This document shows positions 10 to 54,001 of a DNA stretch of 64,000 nt, piece by piece; the stretch's first letter is position 1, and every line of letters begins with the position of its first letter. The stretch covers positions 55,988-119,987 of the forward strand of contig NZ_ASJR01000004.1 of the NCBI RefSeq assembly GCF_000474745.1, read 5' to 3'. The notes beneath the pieces were generated by a model, which saw only the letters and a list, made by a program, of their open reading frames with translations, had not been told where the DNA came from and searched no databases. Position numbers and translations under genes: made by a program. Source of the DNA: Chitinivibrio alkaliphilus ACht1 (GTDB lineage: Bacteria; Fibrobacterota; Chitinivibrionia; Chitinivibrionales; Chitinivibrionaceae).

Positions 10-1386
10 TTGTGGCGAAATATGTTTGTTCGAGGTGTTGAGAATATTCTCTTGGCAACAGGCACACTCCTTTTGCTTGCCACATCTTTCTATGACATGT
101 ATTTTATCCTTGTTGAGAAGGAGCCCTTTTTCTGGTCTACTGCCTATGGGTACATGGGGTTATCTGTTGCATGTGTATGTGTTTTAATGATTCATCACAA
201 GCGTGACATCGCTTCTATTGAGTTACAGAAGCTTGAAATTGATCAGACCAGTAGAAAATTACTGCATTCAAATCAGATGTTAGTAGAGTCTACGCGAAAG
301 ATAGAGGAATATGCTCATCTGAAAAATCGGTTCATTAAAAGTATTACCCATGAAATAGTTACTCCAATTAATGGAATCGCCGATTCAACTGATTATTTGC
401 GGAGTCTTGATTTTGAAAGGGATACAGCTGAGCCTTATATTGATAACCTACTCATCTCCTACTATAATTTAACGATCCTTTTTAATAATTTAGTTGATTA
501 TACCAGTCTTGATGAGTCAGATATCACCTTAGAATGTCATAAGTATAATTTTGAAAAATCTATACAGCGTCTGGTTGAGTATACTCGTAAGAATGCTCAG
601 TCAAAGGGGTTGACCTTTTCCTTTGAATATACCTCAGGTGGCTTGCCCTCCTTGGTGTATGGTGATGAAAAGCGAATCGCTCAGGTAATTCTTAATTTAT
701 TAAATAACGCGATAAAGTTTACCGAATTTGGTTCTGTTACCCTTAAGATATCCTGCGAAGAACATACTCTGTTTTGCTCAGTAAGTGATACTGGTGTCGG
801 GATAGATCCGACTCTGAAGGAAAATATTTTTAAGGCCTTCACCAGTGAACGGTCCTACTCGACGGGAAAAGAGATGTATGCAAATATTGGCTTAGGTTTA
901 GCCATTACCCACAGAATTGTCACATCCATGGGGGGAAATATTTCCTTTAGGAGTAGAAAAAATCGTGGTTCTACGTTCTCTATTGAGGTTCCGCTTCAGC
1001 GTATCTCAGATTCCCCCAGTACGGACTCTTCTATAGAGCAGAAAAGAATTTTGGTGGCTGAAGATAATCCCATTAATCAGAAACTTATTACGATTCTCTT
1101 AAAGACCTATAATTTGGTAGCTGTTGTAGTCGGAAATGGCTTTGAAGCTGTTGAGCGGGTGAAGCAAGAGTCCTTTGATTTGGTTATTATGGACATTCAA
1201 ATGCCTGTAATGGACGGACTTGAAGCGACGCGTGAGATAAAGAAATTATGTCCCTCTCTGCCCGTTATTGCATGGACTGCAAACAGTACCAGTGTTGAAT
1301 GTTCAGCCGCAGGTGTCGATGGCTTTTTATCAAAACCAACCTCAAGAGAATCGTTATATCACGAAGTTCTGGATAGAATTACATAA
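10..1386 (+). CDS. Hybrid sensor histidine kinase (2 TM, HisKA, HATPase_c, C-terminal REC). The frame is open to the window edge, so the gene may start slightly upstream.
   Basis: H-box 'ITHEIVTPINGI'; N/G boxes 'LLNNAIKFT', 'DTGVGI', 'GLGLAI'; receiver 'ILVAEDNPINQ...DLVIMDIQMPVMDG'. Confidence 0.8.
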   Translation: MWRNMFVRGVENILLATGTLLLLATSFYDMYFILVEKEPFFWSTAYGYMGLSVACVCVLMIHHKRDIASIELQKLEIDQTSRKLLHSNQMLVESTRKIEEYAHLKNRFIKSITHEIVTPINGIADSTDYLRSLDFERDTAEPYIDNLLISYYNLTILFNNLVDYTSLDESDITLECHKYNFEKSIQRLVEYTRKNAQSKGLTFSFEYTSGGLPSLVYGDEKRIAQVILNLLNNAIKFTEFGSVTLKISCEEHTLFCSVSDTGVGIDPTLKENIFKAFTSERSYSTGKEMYANIGLGLAITHRIVTSMGGNISFRSRKNRGSTFSIEVPLQRISDSPSTDSSIEQKRILVAEDNPINQKLITILLKTYNLVAVVVGNGFEAVERVKQESFDLVIMDIQMPVMDGLEATREIKKLCPSLPVIAWTANSTSVECSAAGVDGFLSKPTSRESLYHEVLDRIT

Positions 1387-1475
1387 TTTTATTGAGTTTC
1401 GTGAACGGACATACTTGCGGGGGCAAAAATAACGTATTTTCTGGCGGTGCAATTCTTACTATGAAGGGATAGTAC

Positions 1476-2618
1476 ATGTCAAAACCGAGCGGAAGGAGTT
1501 CCCGTGAATACACATCACGGCTCTACTCTGAAATGGCTGGTATTGAAAAATATGTGACGCGAGTGTTTTCAAAAGTTGCCTTTCCAAAAGAAGATATCGA
1601 CCGCCTCTTTTCTGTTGATAATGAAAGAGTTACTATTGTCTGTACTCATCGTAGCCATGCCGACTATCTTGTAACGGGCTTGGAGTTTATTCGAGAGGGG
1701 GTTCAGAATCTTCGTTTTGCTGCGGGAGATAATCTCACAGGACTTCCTTTTATTGGTATTCTCTTTCGTAAGGTCGGCTCTTTTACAGTACAGAGAGGTC
1801 GTGTACATAATCGACAGTATCTTTTTCGTTTGGCAGAGTTTGTAAAACGTCTGTTACAGCGGGGACAGAATGTACTTGTGTACCCAGAGGGGGGGCGAAG
1901 TTATTCTGGACGTATGCTGGAGATAAAAAGTGGTCTTATTGGTTCCACGATTATGGCGCAAAAGGAAAATCCCGAACGAGACTACTATATTTTGCCCATG
2001 GCTTGTTCCTATTCAGCAGTTCCTGAAGCGCAGTACTTTCATATTCTTCTTCGGGGTAAGGAGTGGCGAACCAAGAAGGGCTTTTTTATGAAAAGCCTTG
2101 GTTCACTTTTGTATTATGGTGCTGATGTGTGGACCTTTTTACAATTATGGTTATTTCCGCCAAAGAAAAATGAGATATACATAGATGTGGGTACTCCCGT
2201 TCGTGTAAAAGATATTACCGATGTTGAAGGGTTATATCGCAAGAATGCAAAGAATGAATTCTTTGCGAATGGGCGAGCAACCAAGGAGTGCTCGGTTTTT
2301 ATTAGGAAGCGTCTCTTACAGCTTTATCGAGTCCTTCCCCATAATATTGTTGCATACCTTATGGATACAAAGCTATATTACCAGGGAGAGTCAGCATCAA
2401 TAGAAAAGATTGAAGAGATTATTTCCTTCTTATCAACAAATGAGTGTAATACAAAGGGGCTTGATCATTTGTCTCCACAAGAGATTCTTTTGCAGGGGGG
2501 AGAGACGTTACGCTCTATGAAGGTTTGTCGAGAGAGAGGCAAGAAGGGTGTTGTGGTAAGAAAAAAAGACTTACTGCGGTATTATGCTAATACAGTATAT
2601 GATGTAATGGGAGAGTAG
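1476..2618 (+). CDS. GPAT/LPLAT-family acyltransferase (glycerol-3-phosphate/lysophospholipid acyltransferase-like)
   Basis: HX4D motif 'HRSHADY'; second acyltransferase motif 'VYPEGGRS'. Confidence 0.55.
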   Translation: MSKPSGRSSREYTSRLYSEMAGIEKYVTRVFSKVAFPKEDIDRLFSVDNERVTIVCTHRSHADYLVTGLEFIREGVQNLRFAAGDNLTGLPFIGILFRKVGSFTVQRGRVHNRQYLFRLAEFVKRLLQRGQNVLVYPEGGRSYSGRMLEIKSGLIGSTIMAQKENPERDYYILPMACSYSAVPEAQYFHILLRGKEWRTKKGFFMKSLGSLLYYGADVWTFLQLWLFPPKKNEIYIDVGTPVRVKDITDVEGLYRKNAKNEFFANGRATKECSVFIRKRLLQLYRVLPHNIVAYLMDTKLYYQGESASIEKIEEIISFLSTNECNTKGLDHLSPQEILLQGGETLRSMKVCRERGKKGVVVRKKDLLRYYANTVYDVMGE

Positions 2619-2619
2619 C

Positions 2620-4005
2620 ATGGGGTTTAGCGAGTTTATCAGTTGTGACGATATTATTGAGTTGGAGTCGGAAGATAAGGTTTCCGCCATAACCGAACTT
2701 GCCGAAGCCTTTTGTGAGATCCAAAAATGTGACAAGGCAAAACGTCTTATCAAAGATATCATTGCGCGGGAAGAGGCGGCATCGACCTTCGTTGGACAGG
2801 GTGTTGCCATACCACAGGCTGTAATGAATATGAAAGATGAGTATGCCATTATGGTGGGACGGAGCGCCATAGGCATCGATTATGGTGCGGTGCGTAATGC
2901 TCGGGCTCACATTATTGCCTTGGTTATTTCTAAGAAAAACATTGACGATGATGATACCTTTGAAGTTCTTTCGGAAATTTCAACATTCTTCCGTAATGAG
3001 ACGGTAAATAAGCTTATTCGGAGTGCAGAAGTTGAACGCCTTTCTGAGGTGATTTCAGAAGTTCGCAAAGAGGGTGATGATGACAAGGTACTGCCCGGTA
3101 AGAAAAAGACGACTACCAAGGGTAAGAAAGAACCGTTACTTTCTGCGGCAACAGCTCTTGCACGAGATGTGAATGCAAAGGCGGTAATGGTTTATGCCGA
3201 TGCAAAAAAAGATAATGAATTTATAAAAAATTTACGTACCCGTCGTCAAGTTATCGTTGTTACTTCAAATAAAACGCGTTTTAAAGATGAAGATTCGAAA
3301 TATTATTTAATTCAAGCCCCGCCTGCCCGTGGAGGATTTGGGTATGGGCAGGCAAAAATTGGGGTTCTTCTTGGGGTGTCAAAGGGCTTTTTGGGAAAAA
3401 ATGATACGGTTGTGTGTGTAACAGGGGACGAACATCAGGGGATTTTTAACTCCGTGGTTGTGATTGATATCGCTCATGAATTTGATTTCTTCTTCAATGC
3501 AACCAGTTCCATTGTTCCTGATGATGTAAAACCGGAAATTTTGGAGCGTGTACTCGGGCTTGCCTCAGAGATCAGTCTCGAAGGGCGTGAAAAACATCCT
3601 GTGGGAACTATTTTTGTTGTCGGTGATACAAACCGCGTAAATACCTACGTGACCCAGCTGATAATTAATCCGTTCCGCGGACTGAGCGAGTCTGAACGGA
3701 ATATCCTTGACCCAGGCCTGCAAGAAACGGTAAAGGAGTTTGCCGCTATTGACGGGGCTTTTGTTATTACCGGGGACGGAGTTGTTGTTTCTGCGGGAAG
3801 CCATTTGCGCCCCGAGCTTTCATCGGAGCAGAAAGAGAATCGTCGTGATCTTCCCAGTGGACTCGGTGCACGCCATGCTGCAGGTGCAGACATTACAGCT
3901 TGTTCTAATTCAATAGCTATTACCATTTCCGAATCAACCGGTCAAATTACGGTGTTTAAAAATGGGGATATTGTACTTACCCTTCAGCGTCCTTTGATAC
4001 CATAA
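2620..4005 (+). CDS. Diadenylate cyclase (DAC/DisA_N domain) with an N-terminal degenerate PTS EIIA(Ntr)-like domain and a central pyruvate-kinase-C-like alpha/beta domain
   Basis: C-terminal DAC motifs 'IDGAFVITGDGVVVSAG' and 'GARHAAGADI...SESTGQITV'. N-terminal EIIA-2-like 'REEAASTFVGQGVAIPQA', with Gln where the phospho-His sits. Middle 'AKAVMVYADAK...VVCVTGDEHQG' resembles PK_C. Confidence 0.65.
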   Translation: MGFSEFISCDDIIELESEDKVSAITELAEAFCEIQKCDKAKRLIKDIIAREEAASTFVGQGVAIPQAVMNMKDEYAIMVGRSAIGIDYGAVRNARAHIIALVISKKNIDDDDTFEVLSEISTFFRNETVNKLIRSAEVERLSEVISEVRKEGDDDKVLPGKKKTTTKGKKEPLLSAATALARDVNAKAVMVYADAKKDNEFIKNLRTRRQVIVVTSNKTRFKDEDSKYYLIQAPPARGGFGYGQAKIGVLLGVSKGFLGKNDTVVCVTGDEHQGIFNSVVVIDIAHEFDFFFNATSSIVPDDVKPEILERVLGLASEISLEGREKHPVGTIFVVGDTNRVNTYVTQLIINPFRGLSESERNILDPGLQETVKEFAAIDGAFVITGDGVVVSAGSHLRPELSSEQKENRRDLPSGLGARHAAGADITACSNSIAITISESTGQITVFKNGDIVLTLQRPLIP

Positions 4006-7731: not shown

Positions 7732-8856
7732 ATGAAGATACCGGGGTGCATCATAGATACGGATATTAAGCGTGTTGTCGTGAAGATTGGCAGTAAGATT
7801 CTTACACCAACCTCACAGGGAGAGCACATTGGGCGTATATCAGCTCATATAGCAGATATACTCTCTCTTATGGAACAAGGTGTTTCTGTGGTTCTGGTTT
7901 CATCGGGAGCTGTGTCCCATGGACGTGTAAAGCTACAGCTTTCCCAACGGCCTCGGACAATTCCCCTAAAACAAGCCTGTGCCGGTGTCGGGCAGATAGA
8001 ACTGCTAACTCTATACTCTCGACTGCTCGAGAAAAAGGGTGTGCAGTGTGGCCAGATTTTACTTACGTGGGATGATATTGCAGATAAAAAACGCTATAAC
8101 AACTTACGTAACGCCTTGTTCACCATGCTTGATAACGGTATTCTTCCTATTATAAATGAAAATGATAGTGTTGGTGTTGAAGAGATTACCTTTGGGGATA
8201 ATGATACCTTGGCAGCGCAGATTGCAACAATACTGAATGCTGATCTCTTTGTAATGCTTACAGATATCAATGGCGTGTATACGGCAAATCCGCAGAAAGA
8301 TCCTGAGGCTCAACAACTTCAGCAAATAGAAAAAATAGATAACTCCCTACGTGCCATGGCCGATGCAGACGGAAGTGATGTAGGAACGGGGGGGATGGTG
8401 ACCAAAATAAATGCTGCAGATATGGTGACTCGAGCCGGTATTGCCGCGGTTATTGGGAATGGATACGATTACTCTTTGCTCTCTCTTTTGCGTATGTCCG
8501 GGGTCAGTACGTTTTTTGTGCCGACGCAGAAACGAATGAGTGGCAAAAAAAGATTTCTTGCCTTCACTGATACCCCTACGGGAACTGTTTACGTAGATCG
8601 CGGGGCGTATACCGCCATTGCGACCAAGGGGAAAAGTCTTCTTCCAGCGGGAGTACTCTCTGTTTCAGATGGCATTCAACCGGGAGATACTGTTGATATC
8701 TGTTGTGAGGGGCGTTCTTTTGCCCGGGGGATATCAAACTATGCGACGGAAGATATACGAAAAATCAATGGAAAGAAAACAGAGGATTTAGCTCGTATTT
8801 CCGGTGAAGGAACGTATAATGAAGTAGTACATCGAAATAATCTCGTTGTATTATAA
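7732..8856 (+). CDS. proB: Glutamate 5-kinase with a C-terminal PUA domain
   Basis: AA-kinase fold 'VVKIGSKILT...VSSGAV'; 374 aa with a PUA-like tail 'GDTVDICCEGRSFARGISNY'. Confidence 0.85.
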   Translation: MKIPGCIIDTDIKRVVVKIGSKILTPTSQGEHIGRISAHIADILSLMEQGVSVVLVSSGAVSHGRVKLQLSQRPRTIPLKQACAGVGQIELLTLYSRLLEKKGVQCGQILLTWDDIADKKRYNNLRNALFTMLDNGILPIINENDSVGVEEITFGDNDTLAAQIATILNADLFVMLTDINGVYTANPQKDPEAQQLQQIEKIDNSLRAMADADGSDVGTGGMVTKINAADMVTRAGIAAVIGNGYDYSLLSLLRMSGVSTFFVPTQKRMSGKKRFLAFTDTPTGTVYVDRGAYTAIATKGKSLLPAGVLSVSDGIQPGDTVDICCEGRSFARGISNYATEDIRKINGKKTEDLARISGEGTYNEVVHRNNLVVL

Positions 8857-8894
8857 TCATTGTCCTATAATTTTTTCGTAAAGAGGTACGTAGG

Positions 8895-11051
8895 ATGCGC
8901 TTAGTTTTGGCGATAGTTCTCGGGATTCCTGTTATCCTTTCAGCAACCACCTATGGGGGGAATGGCGCTGAGGTGCATACGCATGACCTAATGACTCTTC
9001 TTATGATACAGCTCGGGATTATTATCTTTGCTTCGCGAGTTGGGGGAGCTCTCTTTACACGTTTTCGTTTGCCCTCGGTACTGGGAGAAATATTTGCAGG
9101 TGTATGTATTGGTCCCCACATGCTTGGGGGGGTACCTCTTCTTGGGTTTCATAATGGCCTGTTTCCTCTCAGCTCATCTAACGGGATTCCTGTTTCGCCT
9201 GAGCTGTATGGTCTTGCTACGGTTGCATCAATTATACTTCTCTTTATGGCGGGGCTGGGTACAGACCTGAAGATGTTCTTGCGGTTTTCCCTTGCGGGAA
9301 GTGTGATTGGAATCGGAAGTGCTCTTATTGCCTTTTCTGCTGGTGCGGGGATTGCTGCTTTTTTCTTAAATTTGCCTATTACAGCTCCTTTACCGCTTTT
9401 TCTTGGTGTGGTATCCACAGCGACCTCCGTTGATATTACCGTGCGAATACTGTCAGAAAATAAAAAGCTTGATACTCCCGAGGGAGCAACTATTATTGCC
9501 GGTGCAGTGGTTGATGATATTTTCAGTATTGTTTTACTTGCCATGATAACCGGGTATGCCGTGTTGGAGGGGGTTCATGTCTCTTCGCAGTGGTTTCATG
9601 TTGGTATTATCGGGATTCGTGCTGTTTTTGTGTGGATCTTTTTTACTGTGCTGGGGCTTCTTTTCTCTGAAAAGATAGCTTTGTTTTTAAAGAAAAGCAA
9701 AAGTATTGACACTATTGCCATACTGAGTTTTGGTTTGGCCCTTATTCTTGCAGGGGTATTTGAGCGTGCCGGTCTTGCCATGATTATCGGGGCCTATATC
9801 ATGGGTCTAACTCTTTCTAAAACAGATCTCAGTCTTTCAATTCAAGATAAATTGCAAAGTTTAGAACATTTTTTTGACCCCATATTCTTTACGACCATTG
9901 GAATGTTTGTAAATGTGTTTAGTTTTTTGTCTCCCACGATACTTCTTTTTGGTATTGTTTTCTCTCTGGGAGGTATTATTGCAAAGCTTGTGGGATGTAG
10001 TATTCCCTCCTATTTTCTCAATTTTACTCACTTAGGAGCCGCACGTATTAGTTTTGGTATGATTCCCCGGGGAGAAGTGGGCTTGATTTTTGCGGGCTTA
10101 GGGTTATCCACGGGCATTTTAACACAGGATACCTTTGCCGTATCAGTTATGATGGCGGTTTCATCAACGGTTGTGGGGCCTGTTGTTCTTGAACGTCTCT
10201 TGCGTAAAGATAAAAAAGGTACGCGTCATGATATTGTTCTTGTGGAAAAAGTGCAGGTGCGGTTTCATTGTAGTAGTAGTGATTTAGCAGACTTAGTAGA
10301 GCGTAATGTTATTGATGCATATAGCAGTGAAGGGTTTTATGTTACCCGTCTTGAATCTGACCATGGGACGTATCACTTTCAAAAAGAGGATAGCTTAATT
10401 ACCCTGTATCGTGATGGAGTTGAAATGATTTTCGAAACTCCCGTGGATGATGAATCCTATGTTCGCAATATTCTCTATGAGACCATGGCAGATTTAAGTA
10501 GCCTTGTAAATACGGTAAAAAAGCTCGTGCGTCCAGAAGAGATGAAAAAGGAGTTTGCTCAAACTGCACAGCGGGTTAAATTTAATTTGGGCCATGTCTT
10601 TCGCCCTGAATTAATTGAGATGGATCTTCGAAGCGATACAAAGGAAGGGATTTTGCGCGAGCTTGTACACATCCTCACTCTCAATGGCTATATTGTTGAT
10701 GAAGCGGGAGCTTTAAAGGTTGTGTGGGATCGTGAACATGCCGTGAGTACAGGTATGGAAAATGGCGTCGCCCTACCTCATGGTCGGTTTTCTGGAGTAA
10801 ATGAATTGACTTCAGTTATCGGCTTTCATCGGGAGGGGGTTGATTTTAACTCCATGGATGGTAAACCAGCCCATGTTTTTGTTCTAACTCTTGTTCCTTC
10901 AGAAGTACAGGCTCCATATGTTCAATTTTTGGCGGCCATTGCCTCAGCACTAAATGGACCGCAGCGAGTAGCAACACTCTTAGAAAAGAAAACAAAAATT
11001 GAAGTTCTTGACTTTCTTAAAGAGTGCAACGATGATTCAAGAGAAAAATAA
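8895..11051 (+). CDS. Cation/H+ antiporter (CPA family membrane domain) fused to a cytoplasmic linker domain and a C-terminal PTS EIIA type-2 (Ntr-type) domain
   Basis: About 430 aa of polytopic membrane domain. The C-terminal region 'LIEMDLRSDTKEGILRELVHIL...ENGVALPHGRF...HVFVLTLVP' retains the conserved His. Confidence 0.75.
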   Translation: MRLVLAIVLGIPVILSATTYGGNGAEVHTHDLMTLLMIQLGIIIFASRVGGALFTRFRLPSVLGEIFAGVCIGPHMLGGVPLLGFHNGLFPLSSSNGIPVSPELYGLATVASIILLFMAGLGTDLKMFLRFSLAGSVIGIGSALIAFSAGAGIAAFFLNLPITAPLPLFLGVVSTATSVDITVRILSENKKLDTPEGATIIAGAVVDDIFSIVLLAMITGYAVLEGVHVSSQWFHVGIIGIRAVFVWIFFTVLGLLFSEKIALFLKKSKSIDTIAILSFGLALILAGVFERAGLAMIIGAYIMGLTLSKTDLSLSIQDKLQSLEHFFDPIFFTTIGMFVNVFSFLSPTILLFGIVFSLGGIIAKLVGCSIPSYFLNFTHLGAARISFGMIPRGEVGLIFAGLGLSTGILTQDTFAVSVMMAVSSTVVGPVVLERLLRKDKKGTRHDIVLVEKVQVRFHCSSSDLADLVERNVIDAYSSEGFYVTRLESDHGTYHFQKEDSLITLYRDGVEMIFETPVDDESYVRNILYETMADLSSLVNTVKKLVRPEEMKKEFAQTAQRVKFNLGHVFRPELIEMDLRSDTKEGILRELVHILTLNGYIVDEAGALKVVWDREHAVSTGMENGVALPHGRFSGVNELTSVIGFHREGVDFNSMDGKPAHVFVLTLVPSEVQAPYVQFLAAIASALNGPQRVATLLEKKTKIEVLDFLKECNDDSREK

Positions 11052-11131
11052 GAGCCTTATCATTCTCTGTGTGGCATGTTGTATATTCTTGATACGGTCT
11101 TATATGTGTTTTTTTAAAGGAGTGTCTTAGT

Positions 11132-11302
11132 ATGGCTCATCTTATTAATGACGAATGTCTTTCCTGTGGGGCGTGTGAACCGGAGTGCCCAGTAAGTGCA
11201 ATTAGTGAAGGTGATGGTAAATACATCATTGATGCTGATACTTGTACAGACTGCGGTGCATGCGTTGAAGTTTGCCCTGCTGATGCTATTGAAGCAAATT
11301 AG
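11132..11302 (+). CDS. 2x[4Fe-4S] ferredoxin (56 aa). Not in the ORF track because it is under 60 aa.
   Basis: 'CLSCGACEPECP' and 'CTDCGACVEVCP' cluster motifs; SD 'AAAGGAG' 8 nt upstream of the ATG. Confidence 0.75.
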   Translation: MAHLINDECLSCGACEPECPVSAISEGDGKYIIDADTCTDCGACVEVCPADAIEAN

Positions 11303-11322
11303 TGCACAGTGTTGCACAATCT

Positions 11323-11356
11323 AAAAAGGAGGTTCTTAGGAGCCTCCTTTTTTTGT
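11323..11356 (+). terminator. Rho-independent terminator downstream of the ferredoxin gene
   Basis: 'AAAAAGGAGG-ttcttaggag-CCTCCTTTTTTT': 7-10 bp stem followed by a T7 run. Confidence 0.6.
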
Positions 11357-27681: not shown

Positions 27682-29022
27682 ATGAGTTTTCCTGATTCTT
27701 TTCTCTGGGGGGCATCCACTGCGGCGTATCAAATTGAGGGTGCTGCTGCAACAGATGGTCGAGGTGCCTCTGTGTGGGATGCTTTTTGCCGAAAACCCGG
27801 AGCGGTGGTTGGAGGAGAAACGGGAGATGTGGCCTGTGATCATTACAATCGATATGCTGATGATATTGCCCTCTGGGCGTCTTTAGGGCTACAATCATAT
27901 CGCTTCTCCCTTTCGTGGTCACGCCTTTTTCCTCACGGCCGGGGACGGGTAAATTCCAAGGGGGTCGATTTCTATAATCGCGTAATTGACACGTTGCTGT
28001 TCCACAATATTACTCCGGTCATAACGCTCTTTCATTGGGACTTTCCCCTTGACTTATTTTATCAAGGGGGATGGCTTCATCGTGATAGTGCCTATTGGTT
28101 TGCCGACTACGCAGCCTTCGCAGCTCAAACCTTTGGCGATCGGGTTACATGGTGGATTACTCAGAATGAACCTCAGTGCTTTATTGAACTTGGGCATAAG
28201 ACTGGCTATCATGCACCGGGGCTTTCTCTACCGCAACGTGAGGTTTTATGGGCTGCTCATAATTCCCTTCGGGCCCATGGCTGTGCCTACGGACAAATGA
28301 AAGAGGTGCGGAATTCTCTCATGGTTGGGTATGGTCCCGTTGGCGTAACGTCTATCCCACAGGAGGAGACTTCAAAAAATATCATGCAGGCACGCCACCA
28401 CATGTTTTCACATACAGATGAGTCTCTTTTTACCAATACATGGTTTATGGACCCTGTTTTTAAGGGGGAATACCCTGAAGATGGGTGTCATTTCTATGGT
28501 ACAGATATGATTGAGTTTCACAGCAGTGATATGGAGGAAATTCATCAAGGTGCAGACTTCCTCGGTACAAACATCTATCACGGTACCTATATTAATGATA
28601 CAGGGGGTGAAGTAGCACCACCGCAAGGACATTCCACCACAGCCATGGGGTGGCCCATAACTCCCCGTGCGCTCTATTGGGGGCCTCGCTTCCTCTCTGA
28701 GCAGTATGGAGTACCCCTCGTCGTCACCGAAAATGGTATGGCCGGCACAGATTACGCAATGCCAGATGATACCATTATCGAAGACCCGTATCGAGTAGCC
28801 TATTTACGGCAGTATCTTCAAGAGCTTCGTCGGGCGTGCCGTGAAGGTGTTGACGTCCGTGGATACTTTGTGTGGTCAGCCCTTGATAATTTTGAGTGGG
28901 CAGAAGGATACGGAAAGCGCTTTGGTATTGTCTATGTCGATTATGAGACCCAAGAGCGTTTCTGCAAAAGGTCAGCCTTATGGTATAAAGAGGTTATAGA
29001 GAGCAATGGAAGAAATCTTTAG
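27682..29022 (+). CDS. GH1 beta-glucosidase
   Basis: N-terminal 'FLWGASTAAYQIEGA'; acid/base 'ITQNEP'; nucleophile 'VVTENGMA'. Confidence 0.85.
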   Translation: MSFPDSFLWGASTAAYQIEGAAATDGRGASVWDAFCRKPGAVVGGETGDVACDHYNRYADDIALWASLGLQSYRFSLSWSRLFPHGRGRVNSKGVDFYNRVIDTLLFHNITPVITLFHWDFPLDLFYQGGWLHRDSAYWFADYAAFAAQTFGDRVTWWITQNEPQCFIELGHKTGYHAPGLSLPQREVLWAAHNSLRAHGCAYGQMKEVRNSLMVGYGPVGVTSIPQEETSKNIMQARHHMFSHTDESLFTNTWFMDPVFKGEYPEDGCHFYGTDMIEFHSSDMEEIHQGADFLGTNIYHGTYINDTGGEVAPPQGHSTTAMGWPITPRALYWGPRFLSEQYGVPLVVTENGMAGTDYAMPDDTIIEDPYRVAYLRQYLQELRRACREGVDVRGYFVWSALDNFEWAEGYGKRFGIVYVDYETQERFCKRSALWYKEVIESNGRNL

Positions 29023-40277: not shown

Positions 40278-41639
40278 GTGTCTGTGAGAGAAAAAGGTTT
40301 TTTTCAGCGGATTTACGGATATGTACGGAGTGTGCATCCTGAAACGCATATATACCTCTATATAGCCCTAGTCATTCTTGGTATTATTTGGTATGCCCTT
40401 TATACTTCCTACATGCTTGAGCGACTCACAACCTACTCAAAAGCTTCCACCCAAGCTCACGCTGAAATGGTGAGTGATGTTCTTTTTAGTGACTTAAGTC
40501 AATACCGAAAACATAGTATTATTCAAGGTATTGTGGAAGATTTTGATATGCCCATTATTTTTACCGATGAATATGGTGAGCCCCATATTTGGTGGAATAT
40601 CTACCGACGAAAAGGGTTGTTCCAACGCGAGAAGATAGCCTATGACGACGATTCTTACGAGACTATCCAGTATCTACGTCAGAAGGTTCGTGAGTTTGAA
40701 AATACCTATGCGCCTAAGTTGGTGTATGCAGGCAACTCAGCCACACGCATGGGGTGGCTCTACTTTAGTGATAGTACCTTTCTTTCTGGGGTTCGTCTGC
40801 TTCCCTTCTTTGAGGTTTTCTTTGTCTTAATAATTATTCTTGCTATTTATATTGTATTGAAATCCATACTTTTTTCGGAACGACGAAGCTTATGGATTGG
40901 TCTTGCCAAGGAGACGGCACATCAAATGGGAACTCCCATTACATCTCTTTTAGGGTGGATTGAGTACTTAAAGCTAGAAAGCACGAGTTATGAATCAGAT
41001 TTTACCCTTGATTACGATACCATGGAAGAAGACAGCTTTCCCAATAAAGTCAATGATATCGCCAGTGATATGGAACGGGATATTGCTCGCTTGAGAAAAG
41101 TGGCAAATCGCTTTGAGCTCATTGGTTCAAAGCCTTCCTTGCGTCCTAGCTGTTTACGAAAGCTTCTTGAAGATCACGGTGCATATTTTTCGCGGCGTGT
41201 TCCTGTCTTTGGACGAAAGGTGAACGTCGCTGTTGATATTAAAAATGATCTTCCCCCGGTACTTTTAAATAGCGATCTTCTGAGCTGGGTTTTTGAAAAT
41301 TTGTTTAAAAACTCCCTCGATGCCATGGATAAAGCAGAGGGTGAGATATATATTAGCGCTGAACATGTAAAGGTTGATAGGGTTGTTATTGTACGACATC
41401 GTGATAATGGCTGTGGTGTTGGCAAGGACAAGCGTAACACGGTTTTTTCTCCGGGCTATACCACTAAGAGAAGAGGGTGGGGCCTTGGTCTGGCCTTGGC
41501 ACGAAGAATTATCCAAACCTATCACAAGGGTAAAATCTATATTTCCTGGACAAAAAAGGGGGAGGGCACTGAAATTGTGATTGAATTGCCCGTAGCACCC
41601 CAGGCAAAAAAAGGAGCAGTCCATGCCGATGAAGCGTAA
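40278..41639 (+). CDS. Two-TM sensor histidine kinase (PorY-like architecture)
   Basis: TM1 'IYLYIALVILGIIWYALY'; TM2 'FFVLIIILAIYIVLKSILF'; H-box 'ETAHQMGTPITSLLGWIEYL'; HATPase 'NSLDAM', 'DNGCGV', 'GWGLGLALARR'. Confidence 0.75.
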   Translation: MSVREKGFFQRIYGYVRSVHPETHIYLYIALVILGIIWYALYTSYMLERLTTYSKASTQAHAEMVSDVLFSDLSQYRKHSIIQGIVEDFDMPIIFTDEYGEPHIWWNIYRRKGLFQREKIAYDDDSYETIQYLRQKVREFENTYAPKLVYAGNSATRMGWLYFSDSTFLSGVRLLPFFEVFFVLIIILAIYIVLKSILFSERRSLWIGLAKETAHQMGTPITSLLGWIEYLKLESTSYESDFTLDYDTMEEDSFPNKVNDIASDMERDIARLRKVANRFELIGSKPSLRPSCLRKLLEDHGAYFSRRVPVFGRKVNVAVDIKNDLPPVLLNSDLLSWVFENLFKNSLDAMDKAEGEIYISAEHVKVDRVVIVRHRDNGCGVGKDKRNTVFSPGYTTKRRGWGLGLALARRIIQTYHKGKIYISWTKKGEGTEIVIELPVAPQAKKGAVHADEA

Positions 41640-43194
41640 GCGCGTACTATGGATTGACGACGAGGTCGAATATCTTCGTTCACATATCATGTTTCTTGAA
41701 ACCCGCGGCTATGCCGTAACCCCTGTCTTTAGTGGTGATGATGGGCTGTATCAGTTGCAAAAAGGGGAGGACCGTTATGATATTGTGCTCCTTGATGAGC
41801 AGATGCCCGGTAAGGATGGGTTAACTGTTCTTGTGGAAATAAAAGAGCTCTACCCAGATCTTCCTGTTGTTATGGTGACAAAAAGCGAGGAAGAAGAGCT
41901 CATGGAAAAAGCGATTGGCAGAAATATTGATGGATATCTTACCAAACCGGTGAATCCAAGTCAAGTGTTACTGGTTTGTAAAAATCTGCTTAATTCCGGA
42001 GAATATGTTTCGAAACAGGCCAAAACACTCTTTGTAAAAAGTTATTCTGACATCCAAACATCGCTGAACCGTTCTCTCGGATACAAGGAGTGGGTAAAGC
42101 TGTATCACAGTTTAATAAAACGAGAAATGAGTCTTTCTGATATCGATGATGAGTCCATCCGGCAGGGACATCACGGACAGTTTAACGACGCAAATAAGAA
42201 ATTTGGTGACTGGCTTATTTCAGTATATCCGAAATGGGTTGAGGAATCTGTGGCTCGCCCTACCATGTGTCACGATATCCTTAAAAAATTCATTATACCA
42301 GAAATCTCTTCTGGGCGCCCCATTGCCTTTTTGGTTCTTGATTCTCTTCGTATGGATCAATACATTACCATTCAACGGATTATTAAACGAAATTTTCAAG
42401 TAAACAACTATTTCTACTACTCCCTTATTCCTACGGCGAAGGAAATTGCCCTTTCTTCACTTTTGACAGGTGCACTTCCGCGTGATATCAAAAAAGAGCA
42501 TGAAAGCCTTTGGAGTGTGGTGGAGCAGGGAGGTACTGTGTGGGAAGAGTTGGTAAAAATAGGTCTTGAGCCAAGTGATATTCCTCACGAAAAACGAACC
42601 TTTTACGATTTTTCCGCAGGGGCTATTGATATAGACTCTATTGCTTCCTCCATTGTACGGGATGGCTGTGTTCCCACCATTCATGCTGATTTTCTACAGC
42701 TTTTTGCTGGATTTGACTCTTCTGCAGCGTTGGGTGAAATGGCTGCAAATGGAACAGCCTTTCGTGAGATGCTTGAGTCATGGTTTCGTGGTTCTCGTTT
42801 GTATGAGTTACTACGGAGACTGAGCAGTGAAGAAGTTACGGTAATTCTCACATGCAGCTCTGGGAATATCCTCAGCACGCGTGGTACGGAGTACTATGGG
42901 CAAGATCAAAAAATATATTCGGGGCGTTTTCGTTATGGAGAATCTGTTTCGTGTGATGAGCGTTTTGGCTATCATCTCACAGAGCCTGAACGATTCGGCC
43001 TTCCCGTACGAAGTGATTCCACCCTGTATATTTCATTGAAAGAAAACTATTATTTCACTGAACATGCGTCCTATCAAGAGTATAATCGGCATTATAAGAA
43101 TAGCTTTGAGCGTGGGGGAGTCAGTATGGATGAGGTAATTCTGCCACTTTCTGTACTAAAGCCAAAGGTTCTTGATTTAGACTTGGACTTTTAG
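41623..43194 (+). CDS. Response regulator with an N-terminal receiver and a C-terminal PglZ/alkaline-phosphatase-like domain (PorX-like)
   Basis: REC 'VLWIDDEVEYL...DIVLLDEQMPGKDGL...TKP'. A ~390-aa C-terminal domain includes 'AFLVLDSLRMDQ'. Total length 523 aa, similar to PorX-type regulators. Confidence 0.55.
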   Translation: MPMKRKRVLWIDDEVEYLRSHIMFLETRGYAVTPVFSGDDGLYQLQKGEDRYDIVLLDEQMPGKDGLTVLVEIKELYPDLPVVMVTKSEEEELMEKAIGRNIDGYLTKPVNPSQVLLVCKNLLNSGEYVSKQAKTLFVKSYSDIQTSLNRSLGYKEWVKLYHSLIKREMSLSDIDDESIRQGHHGQFNDANKKFGDWLISVYPKWVEESVARPTMCHDILKKFIIPEISSGRPIAFLVLDSLRMDQYITIQRIIKRNFQVNNYFYYSLIPTAKEIALSSLLTGALPRDIKKEHESLWSVVEQGGTVWEELVKIGLEPSDIPHEKRTFYDFSAGAIDIDSIASSIVRDGCVPTIHADFLQLFAGFDSSAALGEMAANGTAFREMLESWFRGSRLYELLRRLSSEEVTVILTCSSGNILSTRGTEYYGQDQKIYSGRFRYGESVSCDERFGYHLTEPERFGLPVRSDSTLYISLKENYYFTEHASYQEYNRHYKNSFERGGVSMDEVILPLSVLKPKVLDLDLDF

Positions 43195-43195
43195 T

Positions 43196-43630
43196 ATGCA
43201 ATTTACGACACATTCTGCGCAGGAGACTCGTCTAATTGGAGAACGCTTAGCTTCTTTGCTTTCTCCCGGTGCAGTAGTTGCTCTTGAGGGCGATTTAGGA
43301 AGTGGTAAGACCGAGTTGGTTCGTGGCTATATGAGTCGTGTCTTTCCGGGAGAGATCGTTCATAGCCCAAGCTTTTCTATTGTTAATACCTATGGCTCAG
43401 GGGAACAGTATGTGCATCATTTTGATTTTTATCGGCTTCATTCCCCAGATGAACTATTCGAAATTGGGTTTTCAGAATATCTTGAGAGTACTGCCGTTGT
43501 GTTTATTGAATGGGCCGACATGTTTCCCCACGTTATTCCTCCCCATGCAGAGCATATACATATGCGAACGGCTGGAGAAGAGTCTGGTCGGATTATTGAA
43601 ACAACCCTGTCTCAACTCTGTCCAAAATAG
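43196..43630 (+). CDS. tsaE: tRNA t6A biosynthesis ATPase TsaE
   Basis: P-loop 'GDLGSGKT'; 144 aa; 'HFDFYRL' motif. Confidence 0.8.
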   Translation: MQFTTHSAQETRLIGERLASLLSPGAVVALEGDLGSGKTELVRGYMSRVFPGEIVHSPSFSIVNTYGSGEQYVHHFDFYRLHSPDELFEIGFSEYLESTAVVFIEWADMFPHVIPPHAEHIHMRTAGEESGRIIETTLSQLCPK

Positions 43631-44583
43631 TTGCTGCTGATTGCCTCTTCTATGGCCTTTTTCGCTTCTGCGTACAAACTGTCTATACGTTGTGACTCCG
43701 CTTTGATACGATCGCTGTTATGCTCCTTTGCAGCATCCTCCATGAAGGCACTGCAGAGATTGAGCTTTTCCACTCCGAGGTTTGATGTTGCTCCTTTCAT
43801 TGTGTGGGTGTGATGACGCAGGGCATCCCAATCTTCTGTATTCACAAGGTCGTGGAGTTTTTCTAGATCACGAGGAAAACGTTGGAGAAATGCCGTAAGT
43901 ATTTTAAGAGCAACGTCTTTTTCGTAATACCCGTGTAAAAACGCTTCCTTGTTAAAGATGAGGGTGGTTTCGGGAATTGGAATCTCGCTGCTCGTATGGG
44001 TAAGGATATTCTCAATTTTTTCCTGTAACACATTCATATCTATCGGTTTTGTAATGTAATCATTCATACCAGCTTCTATGGCTTTTTCTTTGATATCTGA
44101 AAGAGCGTGGGCAGACATGGCAATAATGGGCGTCTGTTTATTTTTGTCAACATAGTTTCGAATGTACTTTGTTGTTTCAAAGCCATCCATCTCAGGCATT
44201 TGTATATCCATAAGTATCACATCATATACCGTTTCTTCGGTCAGTTTTATCACCTCTTTCCCATCCTGTGCTAAATCTGTTTTAACTCCCATTTCTCCAA
44301 GTAATGCTAGGCTTACTTCTTGGTTGATCTCATTATCTTCCACAAGAAGAATGGTTGTGTTTTTCAGTGTTGTTTGTGTTTCTTTTTCTGTTGTTTTGGG
44401 CGTTGAGTCTGTAGAAAAAACAGAAAGGAGCTCTTGTCCCATCTCCGTAATAGGAGCGTCTTTGTGGATACTGTGGGTGTATTCTGAGTGCACAGGGGGA
44501 GCCACTTTCTCGGGTAAGGAGAATTCGTTTGCAACACGAAAAGTCATCGATAGTAGATATTGTTTTTGCAAATTGTGCGGCAC
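43612..44583 (-). CDS. Receiver (REC) plus HPt phosphotransfer protein. The N-terminus is uncertain, and it may be the frameshifted C-terminal part of the upstream hybrid kinase.
   Basis: REC 'ILLVEDNEINQ...DVILMDIQMPEMDGF...TKP'; HPt 'RHHTHTMKGATSNLG'. The track ORF starts at a GTG right after a TGA. Confidence 0.65.
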   Translation of the reverse strand: MPHNLQKQYLLSMTFRVANEFSLPEKVAPPVHSEYTHSIHKDAPITEMGQELLSVFSTDSTPKTTEKETQTTLKNTTILLVEDNEINQEVSLALLGEMGVKTDLAQDGKEVIKLTEETVYDVILMDIQMPEMDGFETTKYIRNYVDKNKQTPIIAMSAHALSDIKEKAIEAGMNDYITKPIDMNVLQEKIENILTHTSSEIPIPETTLIFNKEAFLHGYYEKDVALKILTAFLQRFPRDLEKLHDLVNTEDWDALRHHTHTMKGATSNLGVEKLNLCSAFMEDAAKEHNSDRIKAESQRIDSLYAEAKKAIEEAISSNYFGQS

Positions 44584-47473
44584 TCATCCCTTTCAAGTCA
44601 TCAGAGACAACAACTCCTTCGTATGCGATCTCTTTTGTATAGAGATGATTAATTGCTTCTGGGGCACTCTCACATCGATCGGCTGTGAGGCGCATATCCT
44701 TGATTTTGTTCCACACATACTCTTCATGAGTGGGGATAATAAAGAGTAATGTTCGTTCCCGCAGGGGAGAAAGGGTTATGTCTTTTGGTTGCTGAAGAGG
44801 GAGGCGTATCCAAAAAATAGCTCCACGGGGAGAGTTGTCACGAACACCAATTTCTCCTCCCATAAGGGTTGTTAATTCTTTTGAGATTGCTAAACCCAGG
44901 CCTGTTCCACCATATTTTCGGGTTGTCGATGTGTCCGCCTGGGAGAATTTATCAAAGAGTACTTCTTTCTTTTCATCCCGTACTCCAATGCCGGAATCTT
45001 CCACAGCAATATGTAGGGGAGTATCTTTTGCTGTGGTGACCCGAATAAAAACCCCTCCTTGGTGGGTAAATTTTATCGCATTTGATACAAGGTTTGTTAT
45101 CACTTGCCGAAGGCGGATTGGGTCACCACGGAAAAACTCCGGTACATCTGAGGCTATGTCATATTTTAGGGAAAGCCCCTTCTCTTCAGCTTTAAAGGAG
45201 AGACTGAGCATCGTTTCCGAAAGTAGCTTATGAATACTGAAGTCGATTGACTCTAAATCAAGACGTTTTGCTTCTATTTTAGAAATATCAAGAATATCAT
45301 TGACTAAGCTGAGAAGAATTTGGCCACTACTACTAATACTCTCTGCAAATTTTTCTTGTTTGTCATCTAAGTTTGTCGAGAGAAGAAGTTTTATAAGACC
45401 AAGAATACCGTTAAGTGGGGTTCGTATTTCGTGAGACATGTTTGCAATGAAGTCACTTTTCGCTGAATTGGCAAGTTTTGCCTTTTTTGCAAGTCTTTGA
45501 GCAATATCTTTTTGTTTGGTAAGGGCAAGGGTATACTCCTCGGCCTTCTTTCTCATACGCTCTTCATCTTCGGCAATACTTAAGGCATTTCGACTTGTTT
45601 CGTCAATGGATTCGACAAGAGTATAGATAGCATGCTCAAGGGTGGTACTTTCTTGCGCAAGACTTTCTTTGAGAGAAAGTAGTTGTGAGAAGAGAGAGGA
45701 ACATTCAGAAGAGGCGTCTCGTGGATAATTTTCCTCTAAATGTGCGACCAGTTCGAAAAGAGTATCCTTTGCTTCATGGAATTGTCGTATCTGGTTTGAA
45801 ATATCAATACGAGAGGTTTTCTCGGCAACTTTATTTTGCGTTTCCTGTATATCGATATCAGTGAAAAAGCCCTTTTCCGGATTATATTTTTGTTTTTTAT
45901 TAAGACGGCGAAGCAGGGTGTTTACCTCTTCCTTAAGTTCACGGATTCGGGTTTCACGACCGTTCATAAGGTGATTCATAATTTCCAGTTCGCGGTACTG
46001 TCTTTGCAGTTTCTTTTCTGCCAGCACTTTCTCGGTAATGTTTTCTTTAATAGCAATGTAGTTTGTAATTGCGCCTTGAGAATTTTTTATAGGAGAAATA
46101 GTTGCAACTTCATAGTAAATATCGCCGGATTTGTTTTTATTTTCGAATTCACCATGCCAGGTTCTACCGGATGAAATTGTTTTCCATAGTTCTTCATAGT
46201 AGCTTTCATCCATATGTCCTGATTTTAATATGCGCGGATTTTCCCCAATAGCTTCTTCGGCTGTATAGCCCGTAGAAAGGGTAAAGGCTGGGTTTACATA
46301 CTCAATGATTCCTTCAAGGTCTGTAATAACAACGGTCGATTTTGTTTGTTCTATGGCAATGTTAATTCGTCGATTTTGTTCTTCTGTTTTCTTCTGCTTG
46401 GTTACCTCTATATGGGTACCAAACATGGTTACGGGGGCGCCTGTTTCATCCCACTCCAAAATCTTTCCCTTCCCATGAATCCACACCCAATGTCCTTTTT
46501 TATGATGCATACGAAATTCAATGTCGAGTTCTTCTGATTCTTTTTTAAGGCATTGATTCACGGCGTGCAGTGTTTCGGAAACGTCATCGGGATGGAGGAG
46601 GTTTTTCCATGTATCAAAGCCGGTTTCTCCCAATTCTTCCGAGGTATAGCCGATAATATTGACCCATCCCGTATCGAAATACGTTTCGTTGGTTTTTATA
46701 TTCCATTTCCATGTACCGATGTTGAGAGATTCCGTGATGCGGAAAAAATATTCTCGCTGTGCGTCTGCATAGGCAGATCGATGAATTTGATCTGTAATAT
46801 CTATTATATATGACACGCAGTCTGAAAGAGCTCCCTCTTCATAGGTGAAGAGGGTGTAGTGATCAACCCAGATGTATTCTCCCACATGAGTTTCAAGGCG
46901 GTAGGGGGTATGGTGCAGGGTTTCTGCTTTATGTGATATGGCTTGAGTAATTTCTTTTGTATAGGTGTCTCGATCCTGTGAAGAGATGAGAGATGTATAC
47001 AAAATTCTATTCTGAAGAAAATCTTTGGGGAAATAGCCGAGAATGGATTGGGTATTCTCAGAAACAAAAGACAGGCTATGAGTATCGATGTCCTTCCAAT
47101 GAAACAACATGACAGGACCATTCATAAAGAGGACTCGTTCATACTCAAGTTCTTGTCTCTTTTTGTGTGTGTCAGTTATATCAAGGGCAGAACAGAGAAC
47201 TTGTGAGGCCCCCGCTGATGGTGGGAGATTGGGAATTAAATGCACACAAAAAAAACGCGATTCTCCCTGAGAGTTTTCCATGGATGTCCACGTACACAGG
47301 GCCTCTCCAGAGGAGAGAACCTGTTCAATTTCTTCGTATAAGGGGCTTTCTTCGGTGAACATATTCTCCTGCTCTTCTGCAAGATGGAAAAACTCTTGTG
47401 TTGCCCTGTTTGCATATTGATACGTGCGCTGTATATCGATTGCCCAAAGTAGAACTGTTTTTCCCATACACAC
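44333..47473 (-). CDS. Multi-PAS hybrid sensor histidine kinase (PAS x3-4, HisKA, HATPase_c, degenerate receiver)
   Basis: H-box 'MSHEIRTPLNGILG'; 'LVSNAIKFT', 'DSGIGV', 'GTGLGLAISK'. The C-terminal 'TLLFIIPTHEE...VVVSDDLKGMS' is receiver-like but lacks the acidic pocket. Confidence 0.8.
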   Translation of the reverse strand: MCMGKTVLLWAIDIQRTYQYANRATQEFFHLAEEQENMFTEESPLYEEIEQVLSSGEALCTWTSMENSQGESRFFCVHLIPNLPPSAGASQVLCSALDITDTHKKRQELEYERVLFMNGPVMLFHWKDIDTHSLSFVSENTQSILGYFPKDFLQNRILYTSLISSQDRDTYTKEITQAISHKAETLHHTPYRLETHVGEYIWVDHYTLFTYEEGALSDCVSYIIDITDQIHRSAYADAQREYFFRITESLNIGTWKWNIKTNETYFDTGWVNIIGYTSEELGETGFDTWKNLLHPDDVSETLHAVNQCLKKESEELDIEFRMHHKKGHWVWIHGKGKILEWDETGAPVTMFGTHIEVTKQKKTEEQNRRINIAIEQTKSTVVITDLEGIIEYVNPAFTLSTGYTAEEAIGENPRILKSGHMDESYYEELWKTISSGRTWHGEFENKNKSGDIYYEVATISPIKNSQGAITNYIAIKENITEKVLAEKKLQRQYRELEIMNHLMNGRETRIRELKEEVNTLLRRLNKKQKYNPEKGFFTDIDIQETQNKVAEKTSRIDISNQIRQFHEAKDTLFELVAHLEENYPRDASSECSSLFSQLLSLKESLAQESTTLEHAIYTLVESIDETSRNALSIAEDEERMRKKAEEYTLALTKQKDIAQRLAKKAKLANSAKSDFIANMSHEIRTPLNGILGLIKLLLSTNLDDKQEKFAESISSSGQILLSLVNDILDISKIEAKRLDLESIDFSIHKLLSETMLSLSFKAEEKGLSLKYDIASDVPEFFRGDPIRLRQVITNLVSNAIKFTHQGGVFIRVTTAKDTPLHIAVEDSGIGVRDEKKEVLFDKFSQADTSTTRKYGGTGLGLAISKELTTLMGGEIGVRDNSPRGAIFWIRLPLQQPKDITLSPLRERTLLFIIPTHEEYVWNKIKDMRLTADRCESAPEAINHLYTKEIAYEGVVVSDDLKGMSAAQFAKTISTIDDFSCCKRILLTRESGSPCALRIHPQYPQRRSYYGDGTRAPFCFFYRLNAQNNRKRNTNNTEKHNHSSCGR

Positions 47474-50271: not shown

Positions 50272-50440
50272 GTGGCAAAAGGAGTGGTAAAACTTCGCTT
50301 TTTTTTAAAATTGGAATCTCCTGTCCATGGGGTATTAAATGAGCAAAAATGTCAAAAGATAAATATGAAATATGAACAGTTTTGTATATACTATACAGTA
50401 AGCAGTAATAGGATATACCACCGTGACAAGTGAGTTGTGT

Positions 50441-51655: not shown

Positions 51656-51683
51656 TTAGGTACTGTAACCAGATGGAGTTGAT

Positions 51684-53887: not shown

Positions 53888-54001
53888 TGGCAATTATGTC
53901 AGAAATGTATTAAATTACTACGGAGATGAAACAGAACAGGAACTACTCCTGGGTTGGTTTTCATAGAGGATATTACGGTGTTTTACAAAAAGAGGTTGTG
54001 T

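Follow-up and report, generated by a model that had tools for sequence, protein, structure and literature searches.

A NapA-like CPA2 antiporter of Chitinivibrio alkaliphilus carrying a fused EIIA domain: a candidate for phosphotransferase control of ion transport in cis

A 64-kb stretch of the genome of Chitinivibrio alkaliphilus ACht1 (Fibrobacterota; Chitinivibrionia), hereafter termed the window, was analysed with regard to a single gene, the product of which joins a cation/proton antiporter of the CPA2 family, through a middle domain, to an enzyme IIA (EIIA) domain of the phosphoenolpyruvate (PEP)-dependent phosphotransferase system (PTS) (Table 1). An earlier note on this DNA had described the gene as an antiporter fused to a C-terminal EIIA type-2 domain, and this description was borne out: the open reading frame (ORF) matches Pfam Na_H_Exchanger (PF00999) at residues 47–438 (E 1e-48; 166.4 bits against a gathering score of 26.2) and PTS_EIIA_2 (PF00359) over profile positions 2–143 of 144 (E 7.5e-26; 91.3 bits against 27), so that the C-terminal domain lies well clear of its hidden Markov model (HMM) threshold and the observation is far above chance expectation. 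The product is identical to GenBank ERP38836.1, annotated as 'Na(+)/H(+) antiporter', which begins at ATG 8895, while the RefSeq version WP_162146694.1 (714 aa) begins four codons later at TTG 8907; the former start is favoured by the Shine-Dalgarno sequence that precedes it. In a full-length AlphaFold model (AF2; mean predicted local distance difference test score (pLDDT) 83, predicted template modelling score (pTM) 0.63) three confident modules are separated by less confident linkers at residues 437–451 and 545–570, which were delimited by the model and by hydropathy. The protein is very probably a CPA2 antiporter carrying a regulatory EIIA tail and, as the phospho-acceptor EIIA domain on the transporter is intact and strongly conserved, phosphorelay control of ion flux is the most reasonable reading of its function.

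Table 1. The antiporter gene, its parts and its neighbours (window positions; residues are those of the encoded proteins).
Feature	Position	Strand	Remarks
CPA2 antiporter / middle domain / EIIA fusion gene	8895..11051	+	718 aa, ATG start
Shine-Dalgarno sequence AAAGAGG	8880..8886	+	8 nt 5' of ATG 8895
NapA-like CPA2 membrane transport domain (aa 26–436)	8970..10202	+	Pfam, Protein Data Bank (PDB) matches, hydropathy, AF2 helices
Asp207-Asp208 'DD' ion/proton-binding motif	9513..9518	+	Aligns with NapA VIDDV; helix equivalent to transmembrane helix (TM) 5
Lys364	9984..9986	+	Aligns with conserved Lys of NapA ('GKVLG'); TM10-equivalent helix
Family-specific middle domain (aa 452–556, ~105 aa)	10248..10562	+	Predicted beta-alpha-beta4-alpha, KA1/TBP-like fold
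PTS EIIA type-2 domain (aa 568–710)	10596..11024	+	PF00359; PtsN structures 2A0J, 4GQX, 3URR, 1A6J
His629 codon (CAT), predicted phospho-acceptor in GVALPHGRF	10779..10781	+	Invariant, 120/120
proB (glutamate 5-kinase)	7732..8856	+	38 nt 5' of antiporter gene, terminator-free gap
fdx, 56-aa 2x[4Fe-4S] ferredoxin	11132..11302	+	Downstream of antiporter gene; conserved in L081, L082
Intrinsic-terminator-like hairpin	11323..11352	+	13-bp stem and T run; would close a proB-antiporter-fdx unit
PlsB-like glycerol-3-phosphate acyltransferase gene	1476–2618		Stop 1 nt before cyclase start
EIIA-like / DacZ_P / DAC diadenylate cyclase gene (ERP38831.1)	2620..4005	+	Context, outside the antiporter unit

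The nearest solved transporter to the membrane domain is NapA of Thermus thermophilus (PDB 5BZ3/4BWZ; E ~2e-32 to 4e-33), an electrogenic CPA2 Na+/H+ antiporter (PDB 4BWZ, 5BZ2, 5BZ3) of which residues 7–375 are covered by residues 38–437 of the window protein. The two proteins are alike in their membrane domain and in the DD and Lys motifs, and have the unwound ATSVxIT segment and PRGEVGLI in common, whereas the solved NapA chains (385–394 aa) end soon after the membrane domain and have no counterpart of the tail; the window protein adds the middle and EIIA domains and, ahead of the transport core, a hydrophobic N-terminal helix that was seen both in hydropathy and in the AF2 model. Conservation was assessed in the 120 best homologs of the antiporter (40–63% identity), all of which carry both Pfam domains over their full length: the DD motif is kept in 119 of them and Arg392/Glu394 in all 120, while Lys364 is invariant in alignment A1. 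The combination of DD and Lys is the signature of electrogenic CPA2 antiporters, and the alignment predicts it for the window protein, which is probably an electrogenic monovalent cation/proton antiporter of the NapA type. Its score against the subfamily model TIGR00932 (2a37; 123.2 bits) is below the cut-off of 238.3, indicating a divergent subfamily. As to the transported cation, Na+ would be favoured, with K+ as a possibility.

A reading of the protein as a K+ efflux system of the Kef/YcgO kind, whose EIIA domain would gate K+/H+ exchange in the service of K+ balance and turgor as PtsN does with YcgO and Trk, has to be weighed against this. Some sources call homologs 'Kef-type K+ transport system' or 'potassium transporter Kef', the known ion targets of PtsN are all K+ systems, and the antiporter gives matches to KefC and KefB models and PDB entries; these matches are weak, however, KefC being only a distant structural relative (E 4.5e-4 in the PDB search) and NapA a much nearer one. 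Furthermore, the equivalog scores for KefB and KefC, which represent glutathione-gated K+ efflux, were 23–30 bits and thus far under cut-offs of 750–800, and no KTN/RCK domain was found in the antiporter by domain scans. C. alkaliphilus is a soda-lake bacterium that experiences a pH of about 10 and Na+ at molar concentration, and such a life would strongly require electrogenic Na+/H+ exchange. A K+ efflux system of this kind seems rather unlikely.

The EIIA domain retains its phospho-site His, as the earlier note had stated: His629 lies within GVALPHGRF (residues 624–632) and, together with the whole G-[IV]-A-[IL]-P-H-G-[KR] loop, is invariant in the 120 homologs. Judged by its profile matches, the domain belongs to the Fru/Mtl/Ntr class. 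The narrower label 'EIIA(Ntr)' that it had been given holds in part, since its best solved-structure matches are PtsN proteins (2A0J, E 8e-12), those of Neisseria meningitidis (2A0J) and Escherichia coli (1A6J) matching residues 570–688 with the GxAxPH loop in common; on the other hand, both PtsN equivalog models score below their cut-offs (TIGR01419, 53.8 against 138.7; NF008145, 26.6 against 221), and the fructose-specific IIA model (fruA IIA) scores higher than either at 75.6, although also below its own cut-off. PtsN is moreover a stand-alone protein of ~150–160 aa encoded in an rpoN-hpf-ptsN-type cluster, whereas the window domain is fused to a transporter and neither rpoN nor ptsO was found in the 64-kb window. 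Additionally, 42 of the 120 homologs, of ~890 aa, possess a second C-terminal EIIA_2 domain with a GxAIPH His (e.g. P0023, P0029, P0032, P0033 and P0080), and these long forms are predicted to bear tandem phospho-acceptor domains on one antiporter.

Between the transporter and the EIIA domain lies a middle domain for which no Pfam match was obtained even at E 10 and no sequence or profile match in the PDB. When modelled alone from a 39-sequence alignment it gave a confident beta-alpha-beta4-alpha fold (core pLDDT >90) that yielded no Foldseek match at E <= 1e-3; the model indicates a generic KA1/TBP-like fold that is neither CorC nor RCK. The idea that this domain mimics the PtsN-binding CorC domain of YcgO was rejected on these grounds. 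A profile of the domain matched only 254 clusters (50% identity) among 1.84 billion proteins, always at about residues 430–590 in the full-length matches, which are proteins of 680–900 aa. Ten matches of odd length were checked with Pfam: all ten contained PTS_EIIA_2 and six had kept Na_H_Exchanger, the remaining four starting at or just before the middle domain in the manner of N-terminally cut fragments. The middle domain thus appears exclusive to the CPA2-EIIA architecture, which suggests that the three parts have co-evolved as a unit.

The fusion is common. When one genome per species was scanned, at least 578 species genomes in at least 10 phyla were found to encode a relative, and the best 80 of these loci, which were analysed further, derive from Spirochaetota, Fibrobacterota (including Fibrobacter and Chitinispirillaceae), Marinimicrobia, Omnitrophota, Planctomycetota, Lentisphaerota/Victivallales, Kiritimatiellia, Elusimicrobiota, Cloacimonadota and others. 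Homologs have already been annotated as such, for example 'KefB / fructose-specific PTS IIA' by the Joint Genome Institute (JGI), and the window protein is an ordinary member of a large uncharacterised family; a full-text search returned no paper describing or testing CPA2-EIIA fusions, while an earlier bioinformatic mention in older PTS reviews is possible. The carrier species belong mostly to phyla that are reported to keep a regulatory, permease-less PTS consisting of enzyme I (EI) and HPr, namely Spirochaetota, Planctomycetota and the Fibrobacteres-Chlorobi-Bacteroidetes (FCB) and Planctomycetes-Verrucomicrobia-Chlamydiae (PVC) groups (PMC2405797).

In the mechanism that we propose, such a permease-less regulatory PTS (PEP to EI to HPr/NPr) would reversibly phosphorylate His629, the phosphorylation state of which would thereby report PEP/pyruvate, and hence energy and carbon, status. 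One of the two EIIA states would then dock on the transport domain, through or together with the middle domain, and alter the antiport rate in one direction or the other, such that Na+ extrusion and H+ capture, both consumers of membrane potential, would be tied to energy supply. The arrangement would reproduce in cis what PtsN does to YcgO, and would be for ion transport the equivalent of the EIIA(Glc)-like tail that LacS carries. On the evidence assembled here we consider it probable, though by no means assured, that antiport is controlled by the PEP-dependent phosphorylation state of His629.

To our knowledge, PTS control of ion transport is known only in trans, from Proteobacteria in which PtsN acts on TrkA, KdpD and YcgO. 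In E. coli the K+/H+ antiporter YcgO is inhibited by unphosphorylated PtsN, which binds its tail via a surface that contains His73, whereby the transport helices are held in an inhibited state from which phosphorylation releases them (PMC11808508; bioRxiv 10.64898/2026.08.14.744764). The YcgO (CvrA)-PtsN pair thus resembles the window protein in that an antiporter has an EIIA type-2 partner, the phospho-site His of which decides the interaction (PMC11808508). It differs in that YcgO is a CPA1 protein with an RCK and CorC tail and a separate PtsN, none of which features was found in the window antiporter, a CPA2 protein with a DD motif and a fused EIIA. LacS is, like the window protein, a secondary transporter to whose C-terminus a PTS EIIA domain is fused; it is, however, a sugar transporter of the GPH family, whereas the substrate of the window protein is an ion, and its EIIA(Glc)-type domain is of a different fold family from EIIA type-2. 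In LacS of Streptococcus thermophilus and S. salivarius the fused domain is phosphorylated by HPr(His~P) and modulates transport, and a 2023 review lists no bacterial transporter other than LacS for which regulation by direct phosphorylation is known (PMC10710835).

Several observations weigh against phosphorylation-dependent control of Na+/H+ antiport by His629. DD-motif CPA2 proteins include K+ as well as Na+ transporters; the full-length AF2 pTM is such that the packing of the domains against one another is not fixed by the model; and a literature search found no biochemical work on any member of the fusion family. Moreover, all-against-all ORF clustering of the 80 loci identified no neighbour conserved in more than 11 of them. 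No EI, HPr or HprK gene was detected in the 64-kb window or in the ~9 kb beyond its right end. By tblastn with HPr of E. coli and Bacillus subtilis and with NPr and EI of E. coli, genes for both HPr and EI were located near the fusion gene in only two of the 80 loci, a third (L048) giving a weak EI-like match. These two loci, L040 and L046, derive from an Omnitrophota single-cell genome and a related metagenome-assembled genome (MAG), and in them ptsH-ptsI (966–3104 and 1141–3185, respectively) lie 7 kb upstream of the fusion gene on the same strand, with the unrelated housekeeping genes metK, ahcY, two pilT-like genes and pfk in between; at least some carriers therefore encode the phosphodonor chain. 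HPr is, in addition, annotated in Fibrobacter succinogenes (Fisuc_1002; PMC5442110).

The absence of linked PTS genes from 78 of the 80 loci would also suit an EIIA domain that works without phosphorylation, by binding a metabolite or partner or by stabilising a dimer, with His629 kept for structural or ligand-binding purposes. PtsN itself acts on its targets by protein-protein contact rather than phosphotransfer, and His-less EIIA-like domains persist as functional modules in the family of the diadenylate cyclase that is encoded nearby and described below. That same cyclase family serves as an internal control, however: its phosphorylation loop has decayed, whereas the loop is invariant in the 120 antiporter homologs and likewise retained in the additional EIIA of the ~890-aa forms, and the variability of the His in the cyclases indicates specific selection for the His in the antiporter family. 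Given also that the carrier phyla are those reported to retain EI and HPr, a phosphorylation-independent role is considered improbable, and phosphorelay control remains the preferred interpretation.

With respect to its immediate surroundings, the antiporter gene is probably co-transcribed with proB, which encodes the first step towards the osmolyte proline, and proB, the antiporter gene and fdx form an apparent transcription unit, at the end of which stands the strong terminator-like hairpin. This gene order is conserved only in the two closest relatives, both of them MAGs (window 7732–11352; L081, 8757–12416; L082, 8697–12305). Across the 80 loci the most frequent neighbour is a PstB-like ABC ATPase, present in 11; this phosphate-ABC ATPase gene lies 0.75–1.1 kb upstream of the fusion gene in several unrelated phyla (L016, 7556–8329; L044, 8164–8949; L061, 8080–8811; L076, 8236–9012), the intervening space would roughly accommodate a phoU gene, and a link to a pst/phoU operon may exist.

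The diadenylate cyclase gene lies upstream of the antiporter gene, 4.9 kb separating the stop of the former from the start of the latter. The cyclase contains PTS_EIIA_2 (63 bits), DacZ_P (PF21755; 80.5 bits) and DAC (PF02457; 68.5 bits) domains, with the catalytic motifs D378-G-A and R418-H419 invariant in 120 of 120 cyclase homologs; its score of 114.1 bits against the DacZ equivalog NF041371 is below the cut-off of 430. It shares the DacZ_P (pyruvate-kinase-C-like) sensor, the DAC domain and the DGA and RH motifs with archaeal DacZ/CdaZ, but is bacterial and carries an additional N-terminal EIIA-like domain. The earlier note had called this domain degenerate, and rightly so: in a BLASTP alignment Gln66 (nt 2815–2817) stands opposite His629 of the antiporter, the two EIIA domains being only 28% identical over 60 aa. 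Among 120 sequences of the cyclase family the phospho-site position is Q in 68, H in 24, Y in 12 and K in nine, so that the His is lost in ~80% of members and the domain of the window cyclase cannot act as a phospho-acceptor; by its sequence, it is a pseudo-EIIA here and in most of the family.

Translation of the cyclase is coupled to that of the PlsB-like acyltransferase encoded just upstream (junction TAG-C-ATG), and the pair is conserved in Fibrobacterota (window 1476–4005; L084, 8891–11395; L085, 8872–11389). In L084 (Fibrobacter) and L085 (another member of the Chitinivibrionales), distant genomes, it forms part of a conserved Mla-operon / acyltransferase / DAC / pgi / yjbQ arrangement in which the Mla lipid-transport operon lies divergently upstream of the pair. 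All named sources of the cyclase fusion are Fibrobacterota. A DacZ-like cyclase with a pseudo-EIIA at its N-terminus seems to occur throughout the phylum.

The antiporter and the cyclase had been suggested in the earlier note as a possible module, in which phosphorelay control of ion flux is wired to the synthesis of cyclic di-AMP (c-di-AMP). The genes are on the same strand and both encode PF00359, and the order acyltransferase-DAC-divIC-dnaG-rpoD-proB-antiporter is kept in L081 and L082; these are, however, close relatives with antiporters that are 59–62% identical, and an order kept only in them amounts to ordinary synteny. The genes fall into different transcription units, the cyclase being followed by divIC, dnaG and rpoD, with proB and the antiporter separate. 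Co-occurrence, which the note had named as a check, was observed in so far as both fusions are present in Fibrobacter, Chitinispirillaceae and Chitinivibrionales, but linkage does not extend beyond the two relatives: by tblastn a DAC domain was absent from 80 of 80 antiporter loci of other species (48 of these with an upstream flank of at least 6.3 kb, four of them from Fibrobacterota, i.e. two Fibrobacter, one Fibrobacteres and one Chitinispirillaceae), in neither L084 nor L085 does an antiporter lie closer than 10 kb to the cyclase, and the conserved neighbour of the cyclase is the acyltransferase. The phyletic range likewise differs, the antiporter fusion extending to the 10 or more phyla noted above and the named sources of the cyclase fusion to one.

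A connection through c-di-AMP would not be without parallel, as in Firmicutes both K+ transport and certain CPA2 antiporters are under the control of this messenger. Staphylococcus aureus CpaA and B. subtilis KhtTU bind c-di-AMP via RCK_C/TrkA_C and, like the window antiporter, have a membrane domain of the CPA2 type and, in the cytoplasm, a regulatory tail or partner; domain scans of the window antiporter, however, detected no RCK_C/TrkA_C, CBS, USP-type or other known c-di-AMP receptor domain, and no KhtT-like gene is adjacent. A shared phosphorelay that controls ion flux and second-messenger synthesis alike is, in view of these differences and the lost phospho-site of the cyclase, highly improbable; of the earlier proposal the intact, conserved EIIA on the transporter is supported and its link to the cyclase is not. 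The nearness of the two genes looks like local gene order, and nothing here supports even a looser physiological connection between them. The conserved PlsB-like partner of the cyclase instead hints at a link of c-di-AMP to membrane-lipid or envelope functions.

Elsewhere in the window, glycoside hydrolase (GH) genes are found at 27682–29022 and 50423–56314 (one GH1, two GH8 and one GH9). C. alkaliphilus has been described as an obligate chitin specialist, and families GH8 and GH9 comprise chitosanases and glucosaminidases besides cellulases. Two-component genes encode a hybrid histidine kinase/receiver (10–1386) and, in a cluster at 40278–47473, a histidine kinase, a response regulator, a receiver-Hpt protein and a multi-PAS histidine kinase. 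The ORFs for the latter two (43612–44583 and 44333–47473) overlap by 250 nt, so that one start codon is probably miscalled.

What is new here is plausibly the control by a PTS EIIA domain of a secondary transporter to which it is fused in cis, the transporter being a CPA2 ion antiporter and the connection a private adaptor. We suggest tentatively, and short of an even expectation, that this may be a second and far more widespread case, after LacS, of a bacterial transporter being switched by direct histidine phosphorylation of its own polypeptide, and the first for an ion transporter. Should this be true, the CPA2-adaptor-EIIA protein would be a main physiological output of the EI-HPr chain in lineages without PTS sugar permeases, among them Fibrobacterota, Spirochaetota, Planctomycetota, Omnitrophota, Lentisphaerota, Marinimicrobia and others, and Na+(K+)/H+ homeostasis and the use of membrane potential would be coupled to the PEP/pyruvate ratio through an undescribed KA1/TBP-like adaptor. 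The family bears on the question of which targets are served by the PTS chains that spirochaetes, planctomycetes and FCB/PVC bacteria keep as permease-less 'orphans', and on that of how the phosphorylation state of an EIIA domain acts on a transporter of the CPA fold; as the EIIA domain is physically linked to the transporter, the system would be easily testable. For C. alkaliphilus, a fermentative haloalkaliphile, the architecture suggests a coupling of Na+/H+ exchange to the supply of carbon and energy.

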